Positions 30,684 to 43,079 are shown, counted from the first letter of the stretch. The stretch: DNA of 64,000 nucleotides from an uncultured Planctomycetota bacterium (GCA_963737655.1 CAVTTN010000002.1:4640001-4704000), one strand, 5' to 3'. The notes: generated from the sequence alone by a model not told the origin. Translations and numbers: made by a program.

Positions 30684-31075
30684 CACCGGGCGTCCCAGAA
30701 GCTGCGCAACAGCGCCTCGACATCGGCCGCATCGTAGCCCACCAAATGCATGCGCATGGTGGCCCCGGATCCGTTGTCCAGCTCGAGCCGACACTCCTTG
30801 CCGACCAGGACCGGCGAAGGCAGCTCGACGAACGCAGGGCCGCTCGACCGCGGTCCGCTGGCATCCGGCTCGGTCCGTTCCTTCAAGCGGTAGTAATCGA
30901 GGCCGAGCGCCGCGGCGGTGCGACTGACCCCATGAACTTTCGCCAGCCGGGCGGCCATCGCCCAAAGCACTTGGGGAATCCGGCCGCCCGCCTGCCCCTG
31001 CCTCCGCCACGCCTGAAACCGGTTCCGCCCACGCTCCAGATCGGGCGGTAACTGCTCACGCTTGCTCGTGCCCAT
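30683..31075 (-). CDS. IS66 TnpA-like HTH protein
   Basis: RIPQVLWAMAA..GVSRTAAAL, PAFVEL; position upstream of tnpB. Confidence 0.75.
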   Translation of the reverse strand: MGTSKREQLPPDLERGRNRFQAWRRQGQAGGRIPQVLWAMAARLAKVHGVSRTAAALGLDYYRLKERTEPDASGPRSSGPAFVELPSPVLVGKECRLELDNGSGATMRMHLVGYDAADVEALLRSFWDAR

Positions 31076-31615
31076 CGCGGTCCTCCAAGACGAGGACCGC
31101 CACCCTAGCGGATCAGCCAGAAGAATTCATGCACGCTTGCCGGAAGGACACGGAGCCTCTGGTCCTGCTCGTCGTCGGCCTCGCCGGTCGCGTCTCGCAT
31201 CGACGACGCCATCGGTCGCGCCCCCGGAGTCGTGCCCATCGGTCGGGCTCGTCGTCGTCTCCACCGGTCGTGCGCCGCGTCGTCGGTCTCGCGGGTCGGG
31301 CTCGTCGTCGTCGCGGGTCGCGCTCCTGGTCTCGTCGTCGTGGGTCGTGCGCGTCGTCGTCCTCGCCGGCCCGTCGGCCATGCCCTTGTCGGCGCGTGTC
31401 GTCGGTGCCAAGATGGCGTGGTCGGTCCGTGGGCGCCTCCGAGATGCCGCCGCCTCCCCGTGAACTCTTCGCGCCGGCGGTTCGGCATCGGTTGATACTA
31501 TGTGGGCGTGATCATCGATCGGCCCGCATCCCCCCCGGCCCCCGCGACGACGGGGACGGCCCGATCCGGCTCGGCGGGGCTTGCGGCCGGGCGCCCCGCC
31601 TCCGACCCGTCGCCC

Positions 31616-32968
31616 TCACGACGGCGGGGATGGCGGCGACTTCGCCACCAGCTCGTAGCCCAGCGACCTCGCCTTGCGCCGCAGCGAACGCTCCTGCTTC
31701 CGCCTCACCTCCGCCTCGTACTCCGCCAGCGACCTCGACACGTACTCCTCGCCGTGCCTGAGCAGCCGGTACACCAGCCGCGACAGCTTGTGCGCCGTCG
31801 CCGTGATCGCCCCCCGGCCGCCGATCCGGCCCTTGATCCGCCGGTAGAACTGGCCCGTCGCCGTCGCCGTCCGGCCCGCCGCCTGCGCCGCCATCCGCAG
31901 CGCCTGCCCCACCCGGTCCTTGCCCCGGCGCGGCGTGCGACGCCGCTCGGTCTTGTTGCTCCGGTCGGTCCGCGGGCAGAGGCCCAGCCAGCTGGCGAAG
32001 TGCTTCTCGCTCGGGAACCGCCCCACGTCGCCGCCGAGCTCGGCCAGGATCACCGTCGCCGTCGTCGCGTCGATCCCCTCGATGGCCGTCAGGTCCACGC
32101 CGATCGCCCGGGCCAGCTTGGCCGGGGCGTCGAACCGCACGTCGTTGGCCTTGCGGCCCCTCTTGCGCGGCCTCGGGGCGACCGGCCCGCCCCCGGAGCG
32201 GTCGGGCAGGCGGTCCAGCTCCTCGGCGATCCGGGCGTCGCACTCGTCGACCTGGCGGTGGAGGTAGTGGTACAGGTCGGACGCCTGCTTCAGGGCGAAC
32301 AGGTGCTCGGGCCGCCAGGTGCCCTCCAGGGCCCGGGCGATCTCCGCCTCGTCCCGGGCGCACCGCTCGTGCCGCAGCGCGGCCAGCTTCGCCGGGTGGC
32401 GCTCGCCGGCGAGGATGGCGGCGATGATCGCCGTGCCGGTGACGCCCGTGATGCTGCTGACGACCTCGGTCAGCTTCACATTCATCTGCTCCAAAGCCTT
32501 CTGCATGTGCTGGACGTGGTGCGAGGCGTACCGCACGAGCATCTGCCGCTGCCGCCAGTAGCCGCGCAGGGCCAGGACGGCCCCGGGCGGGCGGAAGGAC
32601 GGGCGGAGCAGGCCGCAGGCGTGGAGGCGCTGGAGCCACTGGCAGTCGAGCCGGTCGGTCTTGGGCCGGGCGCCGCAGTGGCTGGCCTGGCTCGGCTCGA
32701 TGAGGAAGACCTCGAAGCCGCGCGATTCGAGCAGCTCGAACAGGGGGATCCAGTAGACGCCGGTGGACTCCAGGACCACCGAGGTGACGCCCTCGGCCCG
32801 GAACCAATCGGCCAGGGCGTGGAGGTCGGCCGAGCAGGCGCCGAAGGTGCGGACCCGTCCGGGCCCGACGCAGGCGACGTGGTTGTCGGAGTGGACGTCG
32901 ACGGCGGCGGCGTGGGGGTGGACGACCGGCAGGGACGCGTCGGGATCGGGGGGCGTGCGGCGACTCAT
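31616..32968 (-). CDS. IS110 family DEDD recombinase/transposase
   Basis: AAVDVH, VVLESTGVYW, KTDRLDC, IEGI...ILAELG..RFPSEKHFASWLGLCP...S, ATAHKL. Confidence 0.95.
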   Translation of the reverse strand: MSRRTPPDPDASLPVVHPHAAAVDVHSDNHVACVGPGRVRTFGACSADLHALADWFRAEGVTSVVLESTGVYWIPLFELLESRGFEVFLIEPSQASHCGARPKTDRLDCQWLQRLHACGLLRPSFRPPGAVLALRGYWRQRQMLVRYASHHVQHMQKALEQMNVKLTEVVSSITGVTGTAIIAAILAGERHPAKLAALRHERCARDEAEIARALEGTWRPEHLFALKQASDLYHYLHRQVDECDARIAEELDRLPDRSGGGPVAPRPRKRGRKANDVRFDAPAKLARAIGVDLTAIEGIDATTATVILAELGGDVGRFPSEKHFASWLGLCPRTDRSNKTERRRTPRRGKDRVGQALRMAAQAAGRTATATGQFYRRIKGRIGGRGAITATAHKLSRLVYRLLRHGEEYVSRSLAEYEAEVRRKQERSLRRKARSLGYELVAKSPPSPPS

Positions 32969-32999
32969 GGCGAGGGCTCCGGCGGGTGGGGGGCCAAGC

Positions 33000-33175
33000 C
33001 GTCGCGGGCCGAGAGGGGGTCCGGGGACGAGGTAGTCTCCCCGACGGGAACGTCGCGGGGCCGTGTTGACACGGCGCCGCGGGTCACCAATGATGGGGCC
33101 ACGGCCTCTCGGGCCAGGCTAACCTGCGGGCGGCGAGCACCAGGGAGATGACGGCCGGGAGGCTCGCGACGGCGT
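33000..33175 (-). ncRNA. putative IS110 bridge/seek RNA
   Basis: Non-coding region containing a target match (CTAACCTG, 33119-33126) and an element-end match (CTCCCCG, 33037-33043); conserved in two mini-elements; boundaries approximate. Confidence 0.7.
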
Positions 33176-33256
33176 GCCCCAGCGTATCGCGCCCGGTGGT
33201 CGGGGCCACCCCCGGTTCACGTCCGTCGGGGAGCGGTCGCAGGCCGCGCGGAGAGT

Positions 33257-33352
33257 TAACCTGGCGCTGCAGCGGACCCGGCCACGCGGGCGGTTCTGGG
33301 AATGCGGATGTCGCTGGGATGTGGCCGGGTCCGCTGAGCTTGGCTGTTAGGC
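33257..33352 (+). other. integron attC site 1
   Basis: TAAC-N5-GCTGCAGCGGACCCGGCCAC...GTGGCCGGGTCCGCTGAGC-N6-GTTAGGC; imperfect palindrome with extra base in L''. Confidence 0.9.
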
Positions 33353-33374
33353 GGCGTCAGCCGAGCGTGGGGGC

Positions 33375-33806
33375 ATGATGGGCATCGAGCACGTTGACGG
33401 GACCGTCCCCCATCGGACGCGGAAGATGCCCTTTGTGCGCTTCCGCCTTCGCACGCTGATCGCCGTGGTCGCCCTGCTCGCCGGGCTGCTCGCGACATGG
33501 CGAGCCGTCTCCTATCACCTCGCTTACGCTCGCAAGGTCGAATACTCCCGGGATTGGGCGAGGAGCAGCCTGCTCGCGGCGGAGTCCTACCGCAAGCGGG
33601 CTTCCGAACCGGACTGCCCGGCGAAGGATGCCGCCGAGTTGCGATGGCTGGCCAGGAAGGAGGAGCTGATCTCGCGGAGATACGCCGAGATCGCCGCTCA
33701 GCCTTGGCGCCCCTACCCGACGGCGAGTGCCCCTCTTCTGACGCGCCAGGACTGGGACCAGCTCGGAGCCTTCCCGGGCCGGCCACCCGCCCAAGCCGGG
33801 CGCTGA
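33375..33806 (+). CDS. gene cassette ORF, membrane-anchored hypothetical protein
   Basis: Fills the space between attC1 and attC2; RFRLRTLIAVVALLAGLL N-terminal anchor; start may be 33426. Confidence 0.75.
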   Translation: MMGIEHVDGTVPHRTRKMPFVRFRLRTLIAVVALLAGLLATWRAVSYHLAYARKVEYSRDWARSSLLAAESYRKRASEPDCPAKDAAELRWLARKEELISRRYAEIAAQPWRPYPTASAPLLTRQDWDQLGAFPGRPPAQAGR

Positions 33807-33964
33807 TCCGAGTCCATCAGCCTTCGGTCGAGACGCTCTCCTCTTCGTGAACTCTTTGGCTGGGAACGGCCATCGACGCGCGACACTACCCCAACCCCAG
33901 GCTTTGTGGCCGGGCAGCGGCGAGGTCCGGGTAGCAAACCGACGGATTCAAGAGCGGCGGACGA

Positions 33965-34130
33965 GGCGCGGGCCGAGAGGGGAGTCGGTTACGCTTGCAG
34001 TCTCTTCGACGGGAACATCCCCGCGAGTCGGCTCGCGGGGCGTCGCCAATGACCGGATCACGACCTCTCGGGCCAGGCTAACCTACGGGCAGGGAGCACC
34101 AAGGTGGAGACGGCCGGGAGGCCCGCGCCA
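33965..34130 (-). ncRNA. putative bridge RNA of mini-element 1
   Basis: CTAACCT (34078-34084) target match; CTCTTCG (34002-34008) own-end match; upstream TTGCCC-N17-TAGCCT. Confidence 0.65.
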
Positions 34131-34135
34131 CACTC

Positions 34136-34164
34136 AGGCTACGCCGCGCCGGGTCGGCGGGCAA
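34136..34164 (-). promoter_or_regulatory. candidate sigma70-type promoter for the mini-element RNA
   Basis: TTGCCC-17 nt-TAGCCT; identical at 34936-34964; equivalent GTGGCC-17-TACGCT at 33181-33209. Confidence 0.5.
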
Positions 34165-34221
34165 GTCGTCCCCGACCCCCGTTCACGCCCCGTCGGGAGC
34201 GGACGAAGGCCGCAGGATGGT

Positions 34222-34318
34222 TAACCTCGCGCTGCAGCGGACCCCGCACCGCCGCGGCGTCTCTCGTGGTATCATCATCTTCTCGGCGGTGCGGGTCCGC
34301 TGAGCTTTGTCGTTAGGC
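34222..34318 (+). other. integron attC site 2
   Basis: TAACCTCGCGCTGCAGCGGACCCCGCACCGCCG...CGGCGGTGCGGGTCCGCTGAGCTTTGTCGTTAGGC. Confidence 0.9.
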
Positions 34319-34335
34319 GGCGTTCATCGCGGGGG

Positions 34336-34650
34336 GTGCGCATGCCCGATCCGAGTTCGCTCCTGATCTTCAGCGAGGACGAGGCGCGGCCGCTTGAGGC
34401 ATACAATCGCTTCGTCGGGACGCTCCCCCCGGAATTGCAGCAACAGCTAAGGGCGGTGCTGATGAGCTATCTGGGCGCTTACGGCCCCGTGGAGACTCTG
34501 GAGCGATTCCGCGGCCGTACCCTCGCCCAAGTGCTGGAGGATTACCATCCGCCCAGCGAGCCGCCGGTCGTGAAGTCCGGCGAACTGGACGGGGTGCGTT
34601 ATACGCTGGACGATCGGCCCGGTTCCGGTGGCAACCCCGCCTCTTCGTGA
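34336..34650 (+). CDS. gene cassette ORF, hypothetical protein
   Basis: Starts just after attC2; its original in-frame stop is the TAA of attC3 once the mini-element is removed. Confidence 0.75.
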   Translation: MRMPDPSSLLIFSEDEARPLEAYNRFVGTLPPELQQQLRAVLMSYLGAYGPVETLERFRGRTLAQVLEDYHPPSEPPVVKSGELDGVRYTLDDRPGSGGNPASS

Positions 34651-35021
34651 ACTCTTTGGCTGGGAACGGCCATCGACGCGCGACACTACCCCAACCCCAG
34701 GCTTTGTGGCCGGGCAGCGACGAAGTCCGGGTAGCAAACCGACGGATTCAAGAGCGGCGGACGAGGCGCGGGCCGAGAGGGGAGTCGGTTACGCTTGCAG
34801 TCTCTTCGGCGGGAACATCCCCGCGAGTCGGCTCGCGGGGCGTCGCCAATGACCGGATCACGACCTCTCGGGCCAGGCTAACCTACGGGCAGGGAGCACC
34901 AAGGTGGAGACGGCCGGGAGGCCCGCGCCACACTCAGGCTACGCCGCGCCGGGTCGGCGGGCAAGTCGTCCCCGACCCCCGTTCACGCCCCGTCGGGAGC
35001 GGACGAAGGCCGCAGGATGGT
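34642..35021 (-). mobile_element. 380-bp non-autonomous IS110-derived element, copy 2
   Basis: About 3 substitutions vs copy 1; inserted at GCC^TAAC of attC3. Confidence 0.85.
34765..34930 (-). ncRNA. putative bridge RNA of mini-element 2
   Basis: Same motifs as copy 1, shifted by 800 bp. Confidence 0.65.
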
Positions 35022-35117
35022 TAACCTCGCGCTGCAGCGGACCCGGCCACGCGGGCGCGTTATGATCGTGCGGAGCATCCCGGTATGTGGCCGGTCCGCT
35101 GAGCTTATGCGTTGTAC
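35022..35117 (+). other. integron attC site 3
   Basis: TAACCTCGCGCTGCAGCGGACCCGGCCAC...GTGGCCGGTCCGCTGAGCTTATGCGTTGTAC; R' deviates from GTTRRRY. Confidence 0.85.
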
Positions 35118-35231
35118 CTCGTCGGTCGGGCCCTCGCGTGGGTCTCCGGTAAGACGCTCCGAATGGAAGGGGACGGGTGGAGTTTCGAGAGTTTTCGGCC
35201 CGTTCTCCCCGCTGCTATCAGGGCTGGATTC

Positions 35232-35516
35232 TCAAAACCGGACCCGGCCCAGGACGACGAAATCGGTCAGGGCCCGGCCCATCACGGCCCCCCGCTCGGC
35301 ACCCAGGACGGCCCTTGCGAACGGCTCGAACCCGGGCTCGCCCGCCCGGCCCCTCTGGAGCCATCGGTAGAGCGTCGAGGCCCCGACGCCGGACGCCTCC
35401 GCCGCGGCCTCGCGGGACTTCCCCTCGGAGATCGCCGCCACGATCGACAGGGCGGCCCCGGGGGTGAACTTCGAGGGCCGCCCTCCCCTATGCTGCTTCG
35501 GTTTCGCTCTCGGCAT
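35232..35516 (-). CDS. small HTH protein (terminase small subunit-like N-terminus)
   Basis: GGRPSKFTP...REAAAEASGVGASTLYRWLQRG. Confidence 0.6.
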   Translation of the reverse strand: MPRAKPKQHRGGRPSKFTPGAALSIVAAISEGKSREAAAEASGVGASTLYRWLQRGRAGEPGFEPFARAVLGAERGAVMGRALTDFVVLGRVRF

Positions 35517-38467: not shown

Positions 38468-38765
38468 CTCCCCGTCCCGGCCGCCGGACCCGACCGACCG
38501 CCAATCTGATCCAAGAGGCCAATCGACCAAAGGCGGCCGAACCGCCCCTCGGGGCGCCCCCCTCGGACCTGACATCCCTGCCCTGGGCGGTAGGCTCACG
38601 GTCCGCCTGGACGAATTACCCGCTGCCCTCGGAGTGTCGCGGCGGACCATCGAACGCGAGAGGTCCGCCGGCCGATTCCCCAAGCCCGACCTGACGATCG
38701 GGAAGATGCCGCTCTGGCAGCCCCAGACGATCCGAGATTGGATCGCGGGGGGTGGGCGTTCATGA
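38445..38765 (+). CDS. AlpA/excisionase-like HTH regulator
   Basis: LPAALGVSRRTIERERSAGRFPKPD.TIGKMPLW...TIRDW. Confidence 0.75.
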   Translation: MARRWPDDSPSRPPDPTDRQSDPRGQSTKGGRTAPRGAPLGPDIPALGGRLTVRLDELPAALGVSRRTIERERSAGRFPKPDLTIGKMPLWQPQTIRDWIAGGGRS

Positions 38766-39994
38766 TCCGCCCCTATGACGCCTGGATCCTCGCCCGCCTC
38801 GTCTGCGGCCATTCGCTCAACGGCGAACTGGAATCGGTTTCCCCGGCCCTACGGGGAATCGCCGATCATCTGGCCGGGCTTCCCGACGAAGACCGCCAGA
38901 CGGCCCTCGGGGGATTCCGTTGCTCGCCCGCGATCGACGGCCCCGCCTTGATCAAGGCGATGACCGCTCACCACCCCGATGGACCGGCCCCCGAGTCGGT
39001 CCATGAGCGATGCTATGCAACCCTCGACGACATCGCCCGGGTCGTCGCCGATCAAGCGTGGCTCTGGGGAGACTGGCTCGCCCGGGGCGTCCTGAACGTG
39101 GTGGCCTCCGAGCCGGGGACGGGCAAGACCCGATTCGGACTGGACCTGGCCCGTCGGCTCTGGTTTGGCTTGTCGTGGCCTGACAACCAATTGAATGTGA
39201 TGCCCGGGGGGACGCGGACCCTGTGGATTCAGGGCGACCGCAACTTCGCCGAGATGCTCCAAGCCGCCCGCGACTTCGGACTCCCCGGCGACGCCGTGTC
39301 CCTGGGATCGGCCCCCGACGACCCGACCGGGGCGCTCGACCTGGACGACCCGGGAACGCTGGCGGCCATCGGGGGGAGGATCCAGGCCGCCGCCCCGGCC
39401 CTCGTGGTGATCGACACGGTAGGCATGGTGACCGATCGGAACCTCTGCCGCCCCGAAGAAGCCCGCGCATTCTTCGCCCCGATCATGGAACTTGCCGCGA
39501 GGACGGGCGTGGCCTTCCTCGGTCTGACCCATTTGTCGAAGGACAAGGAGGCCCTGGGTCGGCGGATCGTCGAGAAGGCCAGGGTGGTCATCAAGATGAC
39601 GCAGCCCGATCCCGAAGGCAAGAAGGACCGCCGGAGGTTGTGGGTGGACAAGTCCGCCGTTGTGAAGCCCCCGCCCTTGGGGATCACGATGGGGGACGCG
39701 GGCAACAATTACGACTTCACTCCGCCGACGGAGCCCGAGCCGAATCGGGGGGGACGGCCGCCGGAGAAGCTCGGCAAGGCCATCAAGTTCCTGGCGGAGA
39801 AACTGACCGAGGGAGACCGCAAATGGTGCGATCTGGTCAACGAATGGGAAGCGCTCGGGGGGGCCAAGGGGACCCTCTTCAATGCCTGCAAGGCGATGGT
39901 CGACGACGGTCGGATGGTCGTTGATGAGTCCAAGAAGCCCAAGTTCTGCCACCTGGTCAAGGACTCCGAGGAAGGTCAAGAACACGGTTCCTGA
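38762..39994 (+). CDS. AAA family ATPase (RepA/AAA_25-type helicase)
   Basis: WLWGDWLARG, Walker A SEPGTGKT, Walker B LVVIDT, LTHLSK. Confidence 0.85.
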   Translation: MIRPYDAWILARLVCGHSLNGELESVSPALRGIADHLAGLPDEDRQTALGGFRCSPAIDGPALIKAMTAHHPDGPAPESVHERCYATLDDIARVVADQAWLWGDWLARGVLNVVASEPGTGKTRFGLDLARRLWFGLSWPDNQLNVMPGGTRTLWIQGDRNFAEMLQAARDFGLPGDAVSLGSAPDDPTGALDLDDPGTLAAIGGRIQAAAPALVVIDTVGMVTDRNLCRPEEARAFFAPIMELAARTGVAFLGLTHLSKDKEALGRRIVEKARVVIKMTQPDPEGKKDRRRLWVDKSAVVKPPPLGITMGDAGNNYDFTPPTEPEPNRGGRPPEKLGKAIKFLAEKLTEGDRKWCDLVNEWEALGGAKGTLFNACKAMVDDGRMVVDESKKPKFCHLVKDSEEGQEHGS

Positions 39995-40101
39995 CGGTTC
40001 TTGACCCTTGAAGAACCCTTTTCGTGAGCGTCAGGAACCCCGCCCCCCTATGGAGAACCGGGTTGTTGACCCGAACCGAGGCCCTCCGAGACCCGCGAAC
40101 G

Positions 40102-41276
40102 ATGAAACTCCCTGCCCCCGGACGACACCGGATCGACTGGCAAACCGAGCGCGAGCGGATCGACCTGGCCGCCGTCGCGACCCGCCTACTCGGCCCCGCC
40201 CCGGGACGAAGGGGGATCGTGGCCGGAAGCTGTGGTGGTCCTGCCCCCTCGGGACGCACCCCGACGCGAATCCGTCCTTCGCGGTCGAAACCGGCAGGCC
40301 TTTCTGGCGGTGTTTCGGCTGCGGCGAGTCGGGGGACGCCGCGAACCTCGTGATGAGCCTGGAGTCGTTGACGTTCCCCGAAGCCCTGGACTACCTGACC
40401 GGCGGTGCGACTTCCACAAAGCCGCGAGGCCCGAGCAAAGCCGCCCCGAGACCGGCGAACAAGGCCCTGGCCGGCCCATCCGGGATGCCCGAGGCCGACG
40501 CCCTGGCCCTCGTGGAAGCCGCCGCCGCCCGGCTGTGGACCCCCGAGGGGGCCGACGGAATGGCGTATCTGACCGGCCCCGAGCGCGGCCTGGCCCCCGA
40601 GACGATCCGGGCGGCCCGGCTGGGGTGGACGCCTCGGGCGGAAGGGGTGGCGTGGAGGCCGCCCGGCGTGGTCGTTCCGTGGTTCGTGGGCGAGCGTCTT
40701 GCACTGGTCAAGATCCGGCCCCCGGACGAGTGGAGGAAGCGATTCCCGCCTGAGAAGCGCCCTCCGAAATATCTGGAGGCGTTCCGCGATCCAGCTCGCG
40801 TCGTCTGCTACCCCGGCCTATCGACGATCCGCGCCGGCCTTCCCCTCATCGCCGTGGAGGGGGAGTTCGATTGCCTTGCCCTCGGGGAGGCTCTGGACGA
40901 AATGGCTAGCGTGGTGAGCCTGGGAAGCGCCTCGGCCGAGCCGACCCCCGACATCCTCGGCCGGTTCCTGGCCGCGAGCCCGTGGTTCATCGCCACGGAT
41001 GCCGATCCGGCGGGGGAACAGGCCGCCGCCAGGTGGCAAGCCTACCCCCGGGCTCGGCGGGTCCGCCCTCCGGCCCCTTACAAGGATTGGACCGAGGCCC
41101 GCAACGATGGCGTGAACCTCCGCCGCTGGTGGGGGGACATCTACGCCGGCAACGACCACCCTCAGCTATTCACCGATGAGGAAGCGGCCGAGTGGCGGTG
41201 GGGACCGGCCGTCGGGGACGGTTCGCCCGGGATTATCGTTCCCGCGATACGTCGGACGGAGAGCCCGGAAAAATGA
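40102..41276 (+). CDS. DNA primase: CHC2 zinc finger + TOPRIM (frameshift near 40215)
   Basis: CPLGTHPDANPSF...WRCFGCG.SGD, VEGEFDCL, ATDADPAG, KDWTE. Confidence 0.85.
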
Positions 41277-41381
41277 CCCAATTGGGTTAGTGAACTATTG
41301 TAACATAACCCGAACGGGATATAATCCGGGTGAGGTGGAGGAGGAACGGGGCGAGGATCGGACCGAGTGGGACCTACCTCG

Positions 41382-41650
41382 ATGGCCAAGGAAGAGACGA
41401 ACCCACCGACGATGACCGGGACGATCCGCGAGACGATCCTGGCCCGGTCCCTGACCGCATACCGGGTGGGTCAGGCGATCGGGACTCGTTCCCATGTCAT
41501 CCAGAGATTCCTCAACGGGGAGCGAGACCTACGGGCGCGACCCTCAACAAGCTGGCCGCCGCCCTCGGGTTGACGCTGACCCAGACGGAGGCCGGTCATC
41601 CCGACCTGAAAGGAGCAGCGGATGGCGTCGTTCCGCAAGATCGGTCGTAA
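41382..41650 (+). CDS. XRE-family HTH regulator (frameshift near 41535)
   Basis: LTAYRVGQAIG...IQRFLNGERD joined to TLNKLAAALGLTL. Confidence 0.7.
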
Positions 41651-43079
41651 TTGGTTCTTCCGGTATATCACCGCGGAGGGCATCCAGCGCGAACGAAAAG
41701 GGTGCCCCGACCGTCGGGAAACCGAGGCGATGGCGAACGCCTGCGAAGCCGAGGCGGCCCGGATTCGGTCCGGCCTCTCGGACTCGAAGGAAGAGGCCCG
41801 CCGCCGGTATGAGTCGCGACCGCTCGCCGATCACCTGGCCGAATGGCACAAGGCGATGCTCGCCCAGGCGGCGACCCCGAAGCATGCCAATCAGTGTCGA
41901 GGGCGGGTCGATTCGCTCCTGAAGCTGTCCAGGTCGGATCGCGTCTCCGACCTGACGGTCTTCAGGGTCCAGACGGCCCTCGGCATTCTCCGCGACAAGG
42001 GGGACGGCCTGGCCCTTCGGACGCTCCACCACTACGTCCGCAACGCCAAGGCGTTCTCCCGATGGCTCTGGCGGGACGGGCGGACGACGGAAGACAAGCT
42101 CGCCCATCTCCAACCCCCGGCGAACCCTGACACGGACCGCCGCCGCGAGCGTCGTGCCCTGACACCCGAGGAAGTCTCGGCCCTGCTCCGAGCCGCCGAA
42201 TCCGGCCCCGTGGTCTTCAAGATGTCCGGCGTCGATCGGGCCGCCATGTACCGGCTGGCCCTCGGGACGGGATTCCGAGCCGGCGAGTTGCAATCGCTCC
42301 GGCCCGAATCCTTCGACCTGGACTCCGACCAGCCGACCGTGACCGTCGAGGCCGGGCACTCCAAACGCCGCCGTCGCGACGTCCAGCCGATCCGGGGCGA
42401 CCTGGCCACGTCCCTCGGTCGATGGCTCTCCGGGAGGCCCGCCAAGGCCGCGCTATTCCCCGTATCGAGCTACCACACGGCCGAGATGTTCCGTGCCGAC
42501 CTGGAACGGGCAGGAATCCCCTTCCGGGACGACTCGGGGCGAGTGGCCGACTTCCACGCCCTGCGACACACCTTCGTCTCGACGCTGGCCCGGAGCTCCG
42601 CCTCGGTCAAGGTCGTCCAGACGCTCGCCCGGCACTCGACGCCCGTCCTGACCCTCGGGACCTACACGCATTTGGGATTGTGCGACCAGAGGGCCGCCCT
42701 GGAAGCCCTGCCCGCCGAGCAGCCCCCCGGCCCCGGGGCCGAGTCGGCGACCCAGGCCGCGACAGGAACGCATGGCCGTATGAACAATCATCCTTCCCTA
42801 CGCCTTCCCTACGGAGGGGACGGGACAGGGCGGATTGTGTCGGAGCCTGACGGTTCGGGCGAGGCGAGCACCCTCGAATTTACCGGATCGTCGTCGAACC
42901 ATAACCCCCTTACAAAGTCGGCAGTTGTCGCGTCGAGTCGGTCCCTGTCGGACCCTGACGGAAGCGGAGGGGGTGGGATTCGAACCCACGGACGTTTTGA
43001 GGCGTCAGCGGTTTTCAAGACCGCCCCGATCGGCCACTCCGGCACCCCTCCGATCGGTCGACTCGACTCGATTCATTGA
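41622..43079 (+). CDS. tyrosine recombinase/integrase
   Basis: GTGFRAGEL (R), HSKRRR (K), DFHALRHT (HxxR), LARHS..LT..Y; frame reads through the att/tRNA. Confidence 0.92.
   Translation: MASFRKIGRNWFFRYITAEGIQRERKGCPDRRETEAMANACEAEAARIRSGLSDSKEEARRRYESRPLADHLAEWHKAMLAQAATPKHANQCRGRVDSLLKLSRSDRVSDLTVFRVQTALGILRDKGDGLALRTLHHYVRNAKAFSRWLWRDGRTTEDKLAHLQPPANPDTDRRRERRALTPEEVSALLRAAESGPVVFKMSGVDRAAMYRLALGTGFRAGELQSLRPESFDLDSDQPTVTVEAGHSKRRRRDVQPIRGDLATSLGRWLSGRPAKAALFPVSSYHTAEMFRADLERAGIPFRDDSGRVADFHALRHTFVSTLARSSASVKVVQTLARHSTPVLTLGTYTHLGLCDQRAALEALPAEQPPGPGAESATQAATGTHGRMNNHPSLRLPYGGDGTGRIVSEPDGSGEASTLEFTGSSSNHNPLTKSAVVASSRSLSDPDGSGGGGIRTHGRFEASAVFKTAPIGHSGTPPIGRLDSIH
42965..43051 (-). tRNA. tRNA-Ser(TGA)
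   Basis: GGAGGGGTGCCGGAGTGG...GCGGTCTTGAAAACCGC...long variable arm...GGGTTCGAATCCCACCCCCTCCG; CCA not encoded. Confidence 0.95.

Follow-up and report, generated by a model that had tools for sequence, protein, structure and literature searches.

Transposase-free mini-elements with a predicted bridge RNA of their own at attC sites of a Planctomycetota genome

The 64,000-nucleotide stretch analyzed here (the window; GCA_963737655.1, CAVTTN010000002.1:4640001-4704000, from an uncultured Planctomycetota bacterium with a G+C-rich genome) carries a three-cassette integron array in which each attC site is interrupted at the same base, CC^TAAC of the R'' box: attC1 by a 1802-bp IS110-family insertion sequence (IS), called IS-A here, and attC2 and attC3 by 380-bp mini-elements (minis). 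The minis have both IS ends, no transposase and multiple independent insertions. From the comparisons reported below we consider it probable that they guide themselves and are parasites of the IS110 recombinase, i.e., non-autonomous IS110-family elements with a working bridge RNA of their own, inserted precisely at one attC base. Comparison across relatives gives the RNA two loops, one for the target and one for the donor, and in each the 7-nt guide stands in a CCCG-N-guide frame. An internal promoter would produce it from each chromosomal copy, and it would load onto the 450-amino-acid recombinase supplied by the full IS. The complex would copy the minis and spare the IS because two bases of the IS end are mismatched with the mini RNA, while the IS RNA would read mini ends only through two G-T wobbles. 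Judging from the family, the minis would move by way of a circle whose joint is a 2-bp core (CT for the target and TT for the donor, + strand), and the left end is probably recognized mostly by the protein through a GTGAAC motif. The expected outcome is a parasite resembling short interspersed nuclear elements (SINEs) that outnumbers its helper. An earlier note on this DNA had proposed that the minis are parasites consisting of RNA only, which bring their own guide to a recombinase acting in trans, and the conserved promoter boxes, the two-loop RNA and the joint change of guide and end lend that proposal strong comparative support.

Mini-elements and their insertion sites

Each of the three elements in the array is preceded by CC and followed by TAAC and the attC hairpin. 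The earlier note had described three consecutive attC sites split at CC^TAAC, with an IS at 31455-33256 and two 380-bp minis, and both the splitting and the coordinates hold; the two minis differ at three positions. The non-coding end of the IS is ~70% identical to the minis over 276 aligned columns. The terminal and non-coding IS blocks named in that note are present in the minis, but the terminal motif given there as shared is not identical, since the ends read TCCCCG...GGAGAGT in the IS and TCTTCG...GGATGGT in the minis. The minis had also been said to lack an open reading frame (ORF). A stop-free 125-codon GTG frame does cross the mini on the + strand; among six readable full-length minis it is open in four, carries a stop in one variant and has a frameshift plus a stop in a second species (G003). 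It was rejected as a gene, which these interruptions in two of the six make it unlikely to be.

A genome-wide search found 28 minis in 10 haplotypes, against eight copies of IS-A (six intact, two internally deleted). Fifteen of the 28 are identical, which argues for recent movement, and every occurrence of the mini-type end in this genome (G000; 28/28) is a mini. All eight IS copies are inserted at one attC base, and all 28 minis lie at an attC start, at CC/AC^TAACCT and followed by TAACCT.GCGCT; the attC hairpin after them is full in 26 cases, half in one and only 12 bases in one. An assembly artefact is ruled out by 28 copies with left flanks that are nearly all different. One cassette exists both filled and empty, and removal of the mini restores the empty allele without any target duplication, apart from one unrelated 1-base difference inside attC. 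By comparison, it is well supported that the minis are real and recently active. One of them (G000:C2:1975837-1976216) is recombinant, with a variant-type 5' half and a common-type 3' half, and an 18-base tract at the RNA 5' end, found in the commonest mini and in some local helper copies but not in variant minis, suggests exchange between mini and helper.

Occupancy follows the guide. A profile built from 27 attC sites and run on the genome gave 88 hits, a few of them partial or doubtful: 27 with a mini, eight with the IS and 53 free, so that 35/88 attC-like hits are occupied. After duplicates were collapsed, cassette ends reading CTAACCT were occupied in 33 of 49 cases and mismatched ends in none of 21 (Fisher 3.4e-8, for sites that are not fully independent). 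A need for the attC hairpin itself, considered as a further determinant, is unsupported: a relative in G002 (L017) sits in a non-attC site that matches its guide.

The features, counted from the first letter of the window, are as follows.

31455..33256, minus strand: IS-A, full IS110-family element (helper), in R'' of attC1 at CC^TAAC, antisense to the cassettes; 8/8 genome copies at the same attC base
31616..32968, minus: 450-amino-acid DEDD recombinase, with motifs D24, E67, D105, D108 and S337 located
31455..31465, minus: right end of the IS, with a GTTCAC motif and, after it, the donor site that the donor guide reads
32998..33173, minus: predicted IS bridge RNA with a closing terminal stem, located upstream of the recombinase gene
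33119..33125, minus: IS target guide AGGUUAG, pairing with CTAACCT of attC
33037..33043, minus: IS donor guide CGGGGAG, pairing with the IS end
33066..33094, plus: sigma-70-like antisense (outward) promoter TTGACA-17-AATGAT within the IS RNA; one found by consensus scan, shuffled mean 0.1
33181..33186, minus: putative -10 box of the IS RNA/transposase promoter, a TAnnnT box at a position common to relatives
33215..33220, minus: GTGAAC motif ~35 bp inside the IS's left end, inverted as GTTCAC at the right end
33257..33352, plus: attC1, the first three R'' bases of which lie at 31452-31454, left of the IS
33375..33806, plus: cassette ORF, 143 amino acids, no Pfam or NCBIfam match
33842..34221, minus: mini-element 1, commonest haplotype (15/28 copies identical)
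34136..34164, minus: putative internal promoter of mini 1, TTGCCC-17-TAGCCT, a weak consensus match under the scan threshold; boxes and spacing kept in the mini lineage
33965..34129, minus: predicted mini 1 bridge RNA, ~165 nt, two guide loops (model R1, 120 bits)
34078..34084, minus: mini 1 target guide AGGUUAG
34002..34008, minus: mini 1 donor guide CGAAGAG, which fits the end of the mini itself but not that of the IS
34222..34318, plus: attC2
34336..34650, plus: cassette ORF, 104 amino acids; former stop the TAA of R'', present stop a TGA within the opening 9 bases of mini 2
34642..35021, minus: mini-element 2, three differences from mini 1, none in the guides
34936-34964, 34765-34929, 34878-34884 and 34802-34808, minus: putative promoter, predicted RNA, target guide and donor guide of mini 2
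35022..35117, plus: attC3, last of the array, with a degenerate R' (GTTGTAC)

No integrase lies within the array, which is truncated on its left side by an IS66 element and sits within an integrative element whose integrase adjoins a tRNA-Ser. Integrase, primase-like and AAA genes are found at window positions 38738-43079, and a 64-base tRNA-Ser segment occurs three times in the window (9110, 18942 and 42963), as marks of tandem islands. The first cassette (31141-31454) is related to a ~332-bp cassette with 10 copies elsewhere in the genome. The attC of that cassette (TAACCC) is invaded in none of its copies; the relative in the window is cut by IS66.

Recombinase, bridge RNA and guides

The IS-A recombinase is an intact protein on the minus strand with PF01548 and PF02371 in a Pfam search, and it scores 251 bits against NF033542 (cut-off 140); both the DEDD RuvC-like domain and the Tnp domain with its catalytic serine are present. 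Its sole relative in the PDB is IS621 (E 7e-11). Many close relatives are labelled Planctomycetota, and the four best matches carry other labels. The full IS is to be placed in the IS110 group, whose RNA is upstream, and not in the IS1111-attC group; the RNA does lie upstream of the transposase, as the earlier note had said in separating this layout from that of IS1111. The inverted motif at the ends is only 6-7 bp long, placed 4 and ~35 bp from them, and this GTGAAC/GTTCAC motif is probably read by the protein. The sub-terminal GTTCACG was also considered as a guide and rejected because it lies outside the RNA.

The region common to the IS and the minis, previously described as bridge-RNA-like, is predicted to form a two-loop RNA closed by a terminal stem, with the refinement that RNA and promoter both lie on the minus strand. 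Both loops have the frame UGGUG...CCCG-N-7 nt in an alignment of 37 relatives. In a 30-pair structure, 87.1% of cells are paired, compared with 33-47% in slid controls, and 112 cells are changed on both sides compared with 35.3 in shuffles, a control that ignores kinship, with one helix (helix 4) placed by eye. A model of these RNA regions, R1, matches all 28 minis, from which it was partly built, and 27 of the 121 genomes of the family. Rfam gave no match up to E 1 across window 31000-35500. In 29/40 elements, compared with 18/160 control windows, a TAnnnT box is found 57-72 bases upstream of the target guide, and the mini lineage keeps TTGCC(C/T)-17-TAG(C/T)C(T/C) while the spacer drifts. 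The minis are without the -35 box of the IS antisense promoter.

The guides were evaluated on 113 parsed RNA hits, which reduce to 41 distinct elements, the window's own included; the left flank was long enough in 37 and the right end in 29, and 5000 permutations were used. The first six bases of the target guide are exact at the left junction in 30/37 (permutation mean 2.7, maximum 9) and the donor guide is exact after GTT-nn at the right end in 24/29 (permutation mean 3.3, maximum 9), with 26 different target guides and 14 different donor guides among the elements tested. The target guide reads the core and attC, and the donor guide reads the core and the right end of the element. In the IS621 scheme (PMC11208160), these two clear guides correspond to the right guides for target and donor, with a CT core on the + strand between them and the flanks they read.

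Both the IS and the minis have AGGUUAG, the complement of CTAACCT, as target guide. Their donor guides and right ends differ at the same two positions: CGGGGAG with CTCCCCG in the IS and CGAAGAG with CTCTTCG in the mini, each guide pairing 7/7 with its own end. In a further locus, L061, a change of C to T is present in guide and end alike. The two covary in G000, G003 and L061. The mini donor guide was seen in none of 93 transposase-linked RNA hits, a redundant set.

Distribution and competing explanations

The mini lineage recurs in another species (G003), with four hits at 83-86% identity, at attC wherever the flank is assembled, and in L061, where a full IS is immediately followed by a mini. 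In both, conservation is higher in the RNA than in the 3' tail (0.89 vs 0.69 and 0.78 vs 0.62). In a tree of 51 RNA regions, on which four guide labels were mis-parsed and kept out of the counts, the minis form one clade (92/92, under the starring threshold) beside the helper clade, with 95/87 on the joint branch. In a part of the R1 hits, 30 loci plus a chosen 20, examined for other minis, further transposase-free elements that keep the RNA and both ends, some of them multi-copy, were found in G014, G019, G064, G065, G084, G088, G101 and G139, and those that could be read retain the donor guide of the parent. Deletion derivatives that retain the RNA are thus common, and a private donor guide is the rarer step. 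In one case, the L061 mini (L061:1800-2215), a longer target guide resembles the helper's end with a 2-base insert. Separately, L034, L036, L037, L043 and L056 share the guide GGUGGAG and insert just past a conserved structured repeat that resembles the end of another mobile element.

Broader searches were less productive. A plasmid search gave no DNA match to the mini, and its best protein matches, at most 50% identical, are labelled only 'IS110 family'. All three matches of a metagenome pattern scan were chance, and all 10 of a viral scan consisted of the search pattern only. A phylum-wide search for the mini end matched 67/401 genomes, with the RNA in none of 30 loci examined; a family-wide donor-loop pattern matched 5/121 genomes, three by chance. 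An integrase search in five genomes added nothing. Among public sequencing runs, no RNA run was listed as containing the sequence. In public DNA run X1 a relative of the IS was found, with no cover on mini 1, short pieces only on mini 2 and no circle joint.

Several observations weigh against minis that guide themselves. Only two of the four guides are clear: covariation of the left target guide is weak (12, 14, 17 and 12 of 29 compared with ~7.5 expected), with a poor fit in the window's two element types, and for the left donor guide there is no covariation among relatives. Donor ends are inexact in 5/29, with single wobbles among them, and the IS RNA pairs with the mini end with two G-T wobbles. 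The mini promoter was missed by the consensus scan, which found only the antisense promoter inside the IS RNA. The 7-nt guide alone fails to explain the exclusive use of attC, since 74 of 92 free CTAACCT sites lie outside attC, and flanking bases or selection against gene insertions must therefore contribute. Three RNA-less, ends-only 90-bp minis of a second IS110 in this genome (G000:C2 ~689480, 1121400-1121470 and 4298430-4298510) imply that RNA in cis is no general need. Finally, a relic, L224 (G002:C15), has an 81%-identical piece of the transposase fused to a right end of the mini type, which makes a lost autonomous parent possible.

[quoted passage not shown] We regard it as unlikely, though the strongest of the rivals. 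The wobble pairing of the IS donor guide would permit it, and the RNA-less minis of the second IS110 do move in this genome. Furthermore, the IS has an antisense promoter that the minis are without, as ISPpu9 has Asr9, with which Ssr9 hybridizes (PMC8450116). Yet a sponge would have no need of a donor guide that fits its own end, and guide and end covary in all three sources named above. The two deleted IS copies, with ends that fit the IS RNA perfectly, are single-copy, whereas the minis number 28.

The guide-end match could alternatively have been inherited, if the minis arose by deletion from an autonomous sister IS with the same end, now lost or unassembled, whose protein and RNA moved them. 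The G002 relic would be explained in this way, the mini 3' tail resembles the right ends of other full elements, and marker completeness of G000 is 87.7%. Nevertheless, we think this improbable: the 15 identical copies indicate recent movement, the genome is nearly one contig in which all mini-type ends belong to minis, and the mini guide is missing from the transposase-linked RNA hits. The relic could also come from a deletion in an IS-mini tandem such as L061. Passive spread by integrase-driven cassette duplication or gene conversion, or an assembly artefact, is very improbable, for although one cassette plus mini occurs in two arrays and a 1287-bp block is duplicated, no other left flanks are alike, one cassette is known as a filled and an empty allele, and the lineage is at attC in G003.

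If the minis do guide themselves, one recombinase would work with two RNAs of orthogonal donor specificity, each moving its own element, a natural test of how far the recombinase tolerates a foreign RNA and of which donor bases matter. RNA-guided parasites would occupy ~40% of the attC sites in a genome and would have moved at least one cassette in a block bounded by minis, and the 26 target and 14 donor natural guides are a resource for genome engineering.

The duplicated 1287-bp mini-attC-cassette-mini block occurs in two arrays at 99.6% identity, and its flanks differ between them on either side (G000:C2:1678862-1680148 and 1976598-1977884). The comparison indicates that a cassette moved between minis, off integrase boundaries, by homologous recombination or as a composite element; recombination is favored because the minis of the two copies are different haplotypes. 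Insertion also alters the site itself. The first R'' bases are replaced and the R-box is weakened by 2-5 kcal/mol (in folding, a loss of 4.7 for attC1 and 2.4 for attC2) with the inner stem kept. The IS and mini ends (window 31455-31463 and 34642-34650) place an in-frame TGA at the third codon from the displaced R'' TAA, so that cassettes ending in R'' gain only two residues.

PF02371 matches in the genome are limited to the six intact IS-A copies and two of the second IS110, which is 33% identical, has a related target loop with guide GUGUUAG and is located at the GTTAG crossover of one attI-like site. On this reading of the guides, the two RNA-guided ISs appear to strike opposite strands of the integron core motif. 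Nine attI-like sites were noted on G000:C2 (4847050-4848545, 283792, 1672884, 1969639, 5876303, 5881645, 5884879, 6778253 and 1121500), and one integron integrase in the genome passes the cut-off. An extended -10-like motif (TGnTAnnnT or close) lies in the attC central loop of 38/85 attC sites, e.g., at window 34255-34275, compared with 1.8 in shuffles (maximum 7), and attC sites may carry promoters for the next cassette.

Comparison with known systems

The comparison with published systems draws on the papers cited and on 10.1101/2025.10.25.684509. Group IIC-attC introns (PMC3001079) resemble the present elements in bottom-strand insertion at attC and, for the full IS, in an outward promoter toward downstream cassettes; they differ in being retroelements with their own protein and an unrelated chemistry. 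IS1111-attC elements (ISPa21, ISPst6, ISKpn4 and ISPa25; PMC3001079, PMC11187229) likewise insert near the attC 5' end, antisense to the cassettes. Their non-coding region, however, is downstream of tnp (PMC11187229) rather than upstream, their proteins have 330-350 rather than 450 amino acids, and they have long sub-terminal inverted repeats where IS-A has its short motif. In the portions of PMC3001079 and PMC11187229 consulted, RNA-carrying minis are not mentioned. PATE-like derivatives of IS200/IS605 with omega RNAs (10.1101/2023.03.14.532601) are also protein-free and encode a guide RNA for a protein acting in trans, but there the RNA guides a nuclease and not transposition, whereas here it would define donor and target of the move.

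The closest helper systems are those of the IS110 group (IS621 and ISEc21; PMC11208160, PMC11187229, PMC13626964), with which IS-A shares a DEDD plus serine recombinase, an upstream non-coding region, a target loop followed by a donor loop, a left guide before the right one, a CT-type core and no added bases. It differs in its 450 amino acids, in an RNA on the strand opposite the CT core, in 7-nt right guides that dominate while left guides are weak or absent, in a putative internal -10 box in place of a junction promoter and in having no Rfam match. In IS621, the bridge RNA can act in trans, and there is little tolerance for donor mismatches (PMC11208160).

The closest counterpart of the minis is MITEPpu9 (ssr9), a protein-free RNA module moved by the transposase of ISPpu9 in Pseudomonas putida KT2440 (PMC12288879, PMC8450116). 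The earlier note had left open whether such elements are undescribed; an RNA-only IS110 module moved by a transposase is already in print (PMC12288879), and because of this novelty is lower than had been implied. Our literature search, made mostly on titles and abstracts with few subscription papers, found no description of a non-autonomous IS110 element with its own donor guide. Circles of the ssr9 module require the transposase, and its authors call the module selfish and read the RNA as a sponge (PMC12288879). The likeness extends to both IS ends, a ~180-nt sense RNA related to the IS 5' region, an AG core on the transposase strand, a long left box with an inverted repeat and a short right box, the GTT-nn-7mer register, an antisense promoter in the full IS and IS-mini tandem copies (here L061). 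On the other hand, the target is attC here and repetitive extragenic palindromic (REP) sequences there, minis and helper stand at 28:8 here and 8:7 there, and guide-end covariation was shown here where a regulatory sponge was proposed there.

The fit of Ssr9/ISPpu9 to this layout concerns end boxes and primers. In Table S2 of the ISPpu9 work, the right boxes of IS and MITE differ only in the last 7 bases after GTT-nn, the position of the donor-guide site in the present elements, and primer circ-ssr9-F has the form CCCG-N-7mer-NN-TGG, which is the target-loop frame found here, with the 7-mer of the ISPpu9 end (PMC12288879). As a lead from primers, this suggests a bridge RNA in Ssr9 with the IS end as its target, but would argue the other way if the motif is the donor loop; none of the 11 'bridge RNA' passages seen applies the term to Ssr9. 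Such a reading would offer an explanation for points left open for ISPpu9, i.e., ssr9 behind the IS, orphans outside REP and one circle ~1800-fold commoner.

More tentatively, and with slightly less than even confidence, we suggest a general class of guide-only IS110 satellites, bacterial DNA counterparts of SINEs, which use a private donor guide to reprogram a borrowed recombinase into moving them in place of its own element and can retarget independently, even to the helper end, with MITEPpu9 as an unrecognized member. In integrons, satellites of this class would fill many attC sites and thereby open integrase-independent exchange of cassettes. As far as sequence comparison allows, the minis described here are best regarded as belonging to the MITEPpu9 kind, as a variant whose donor guide is private.

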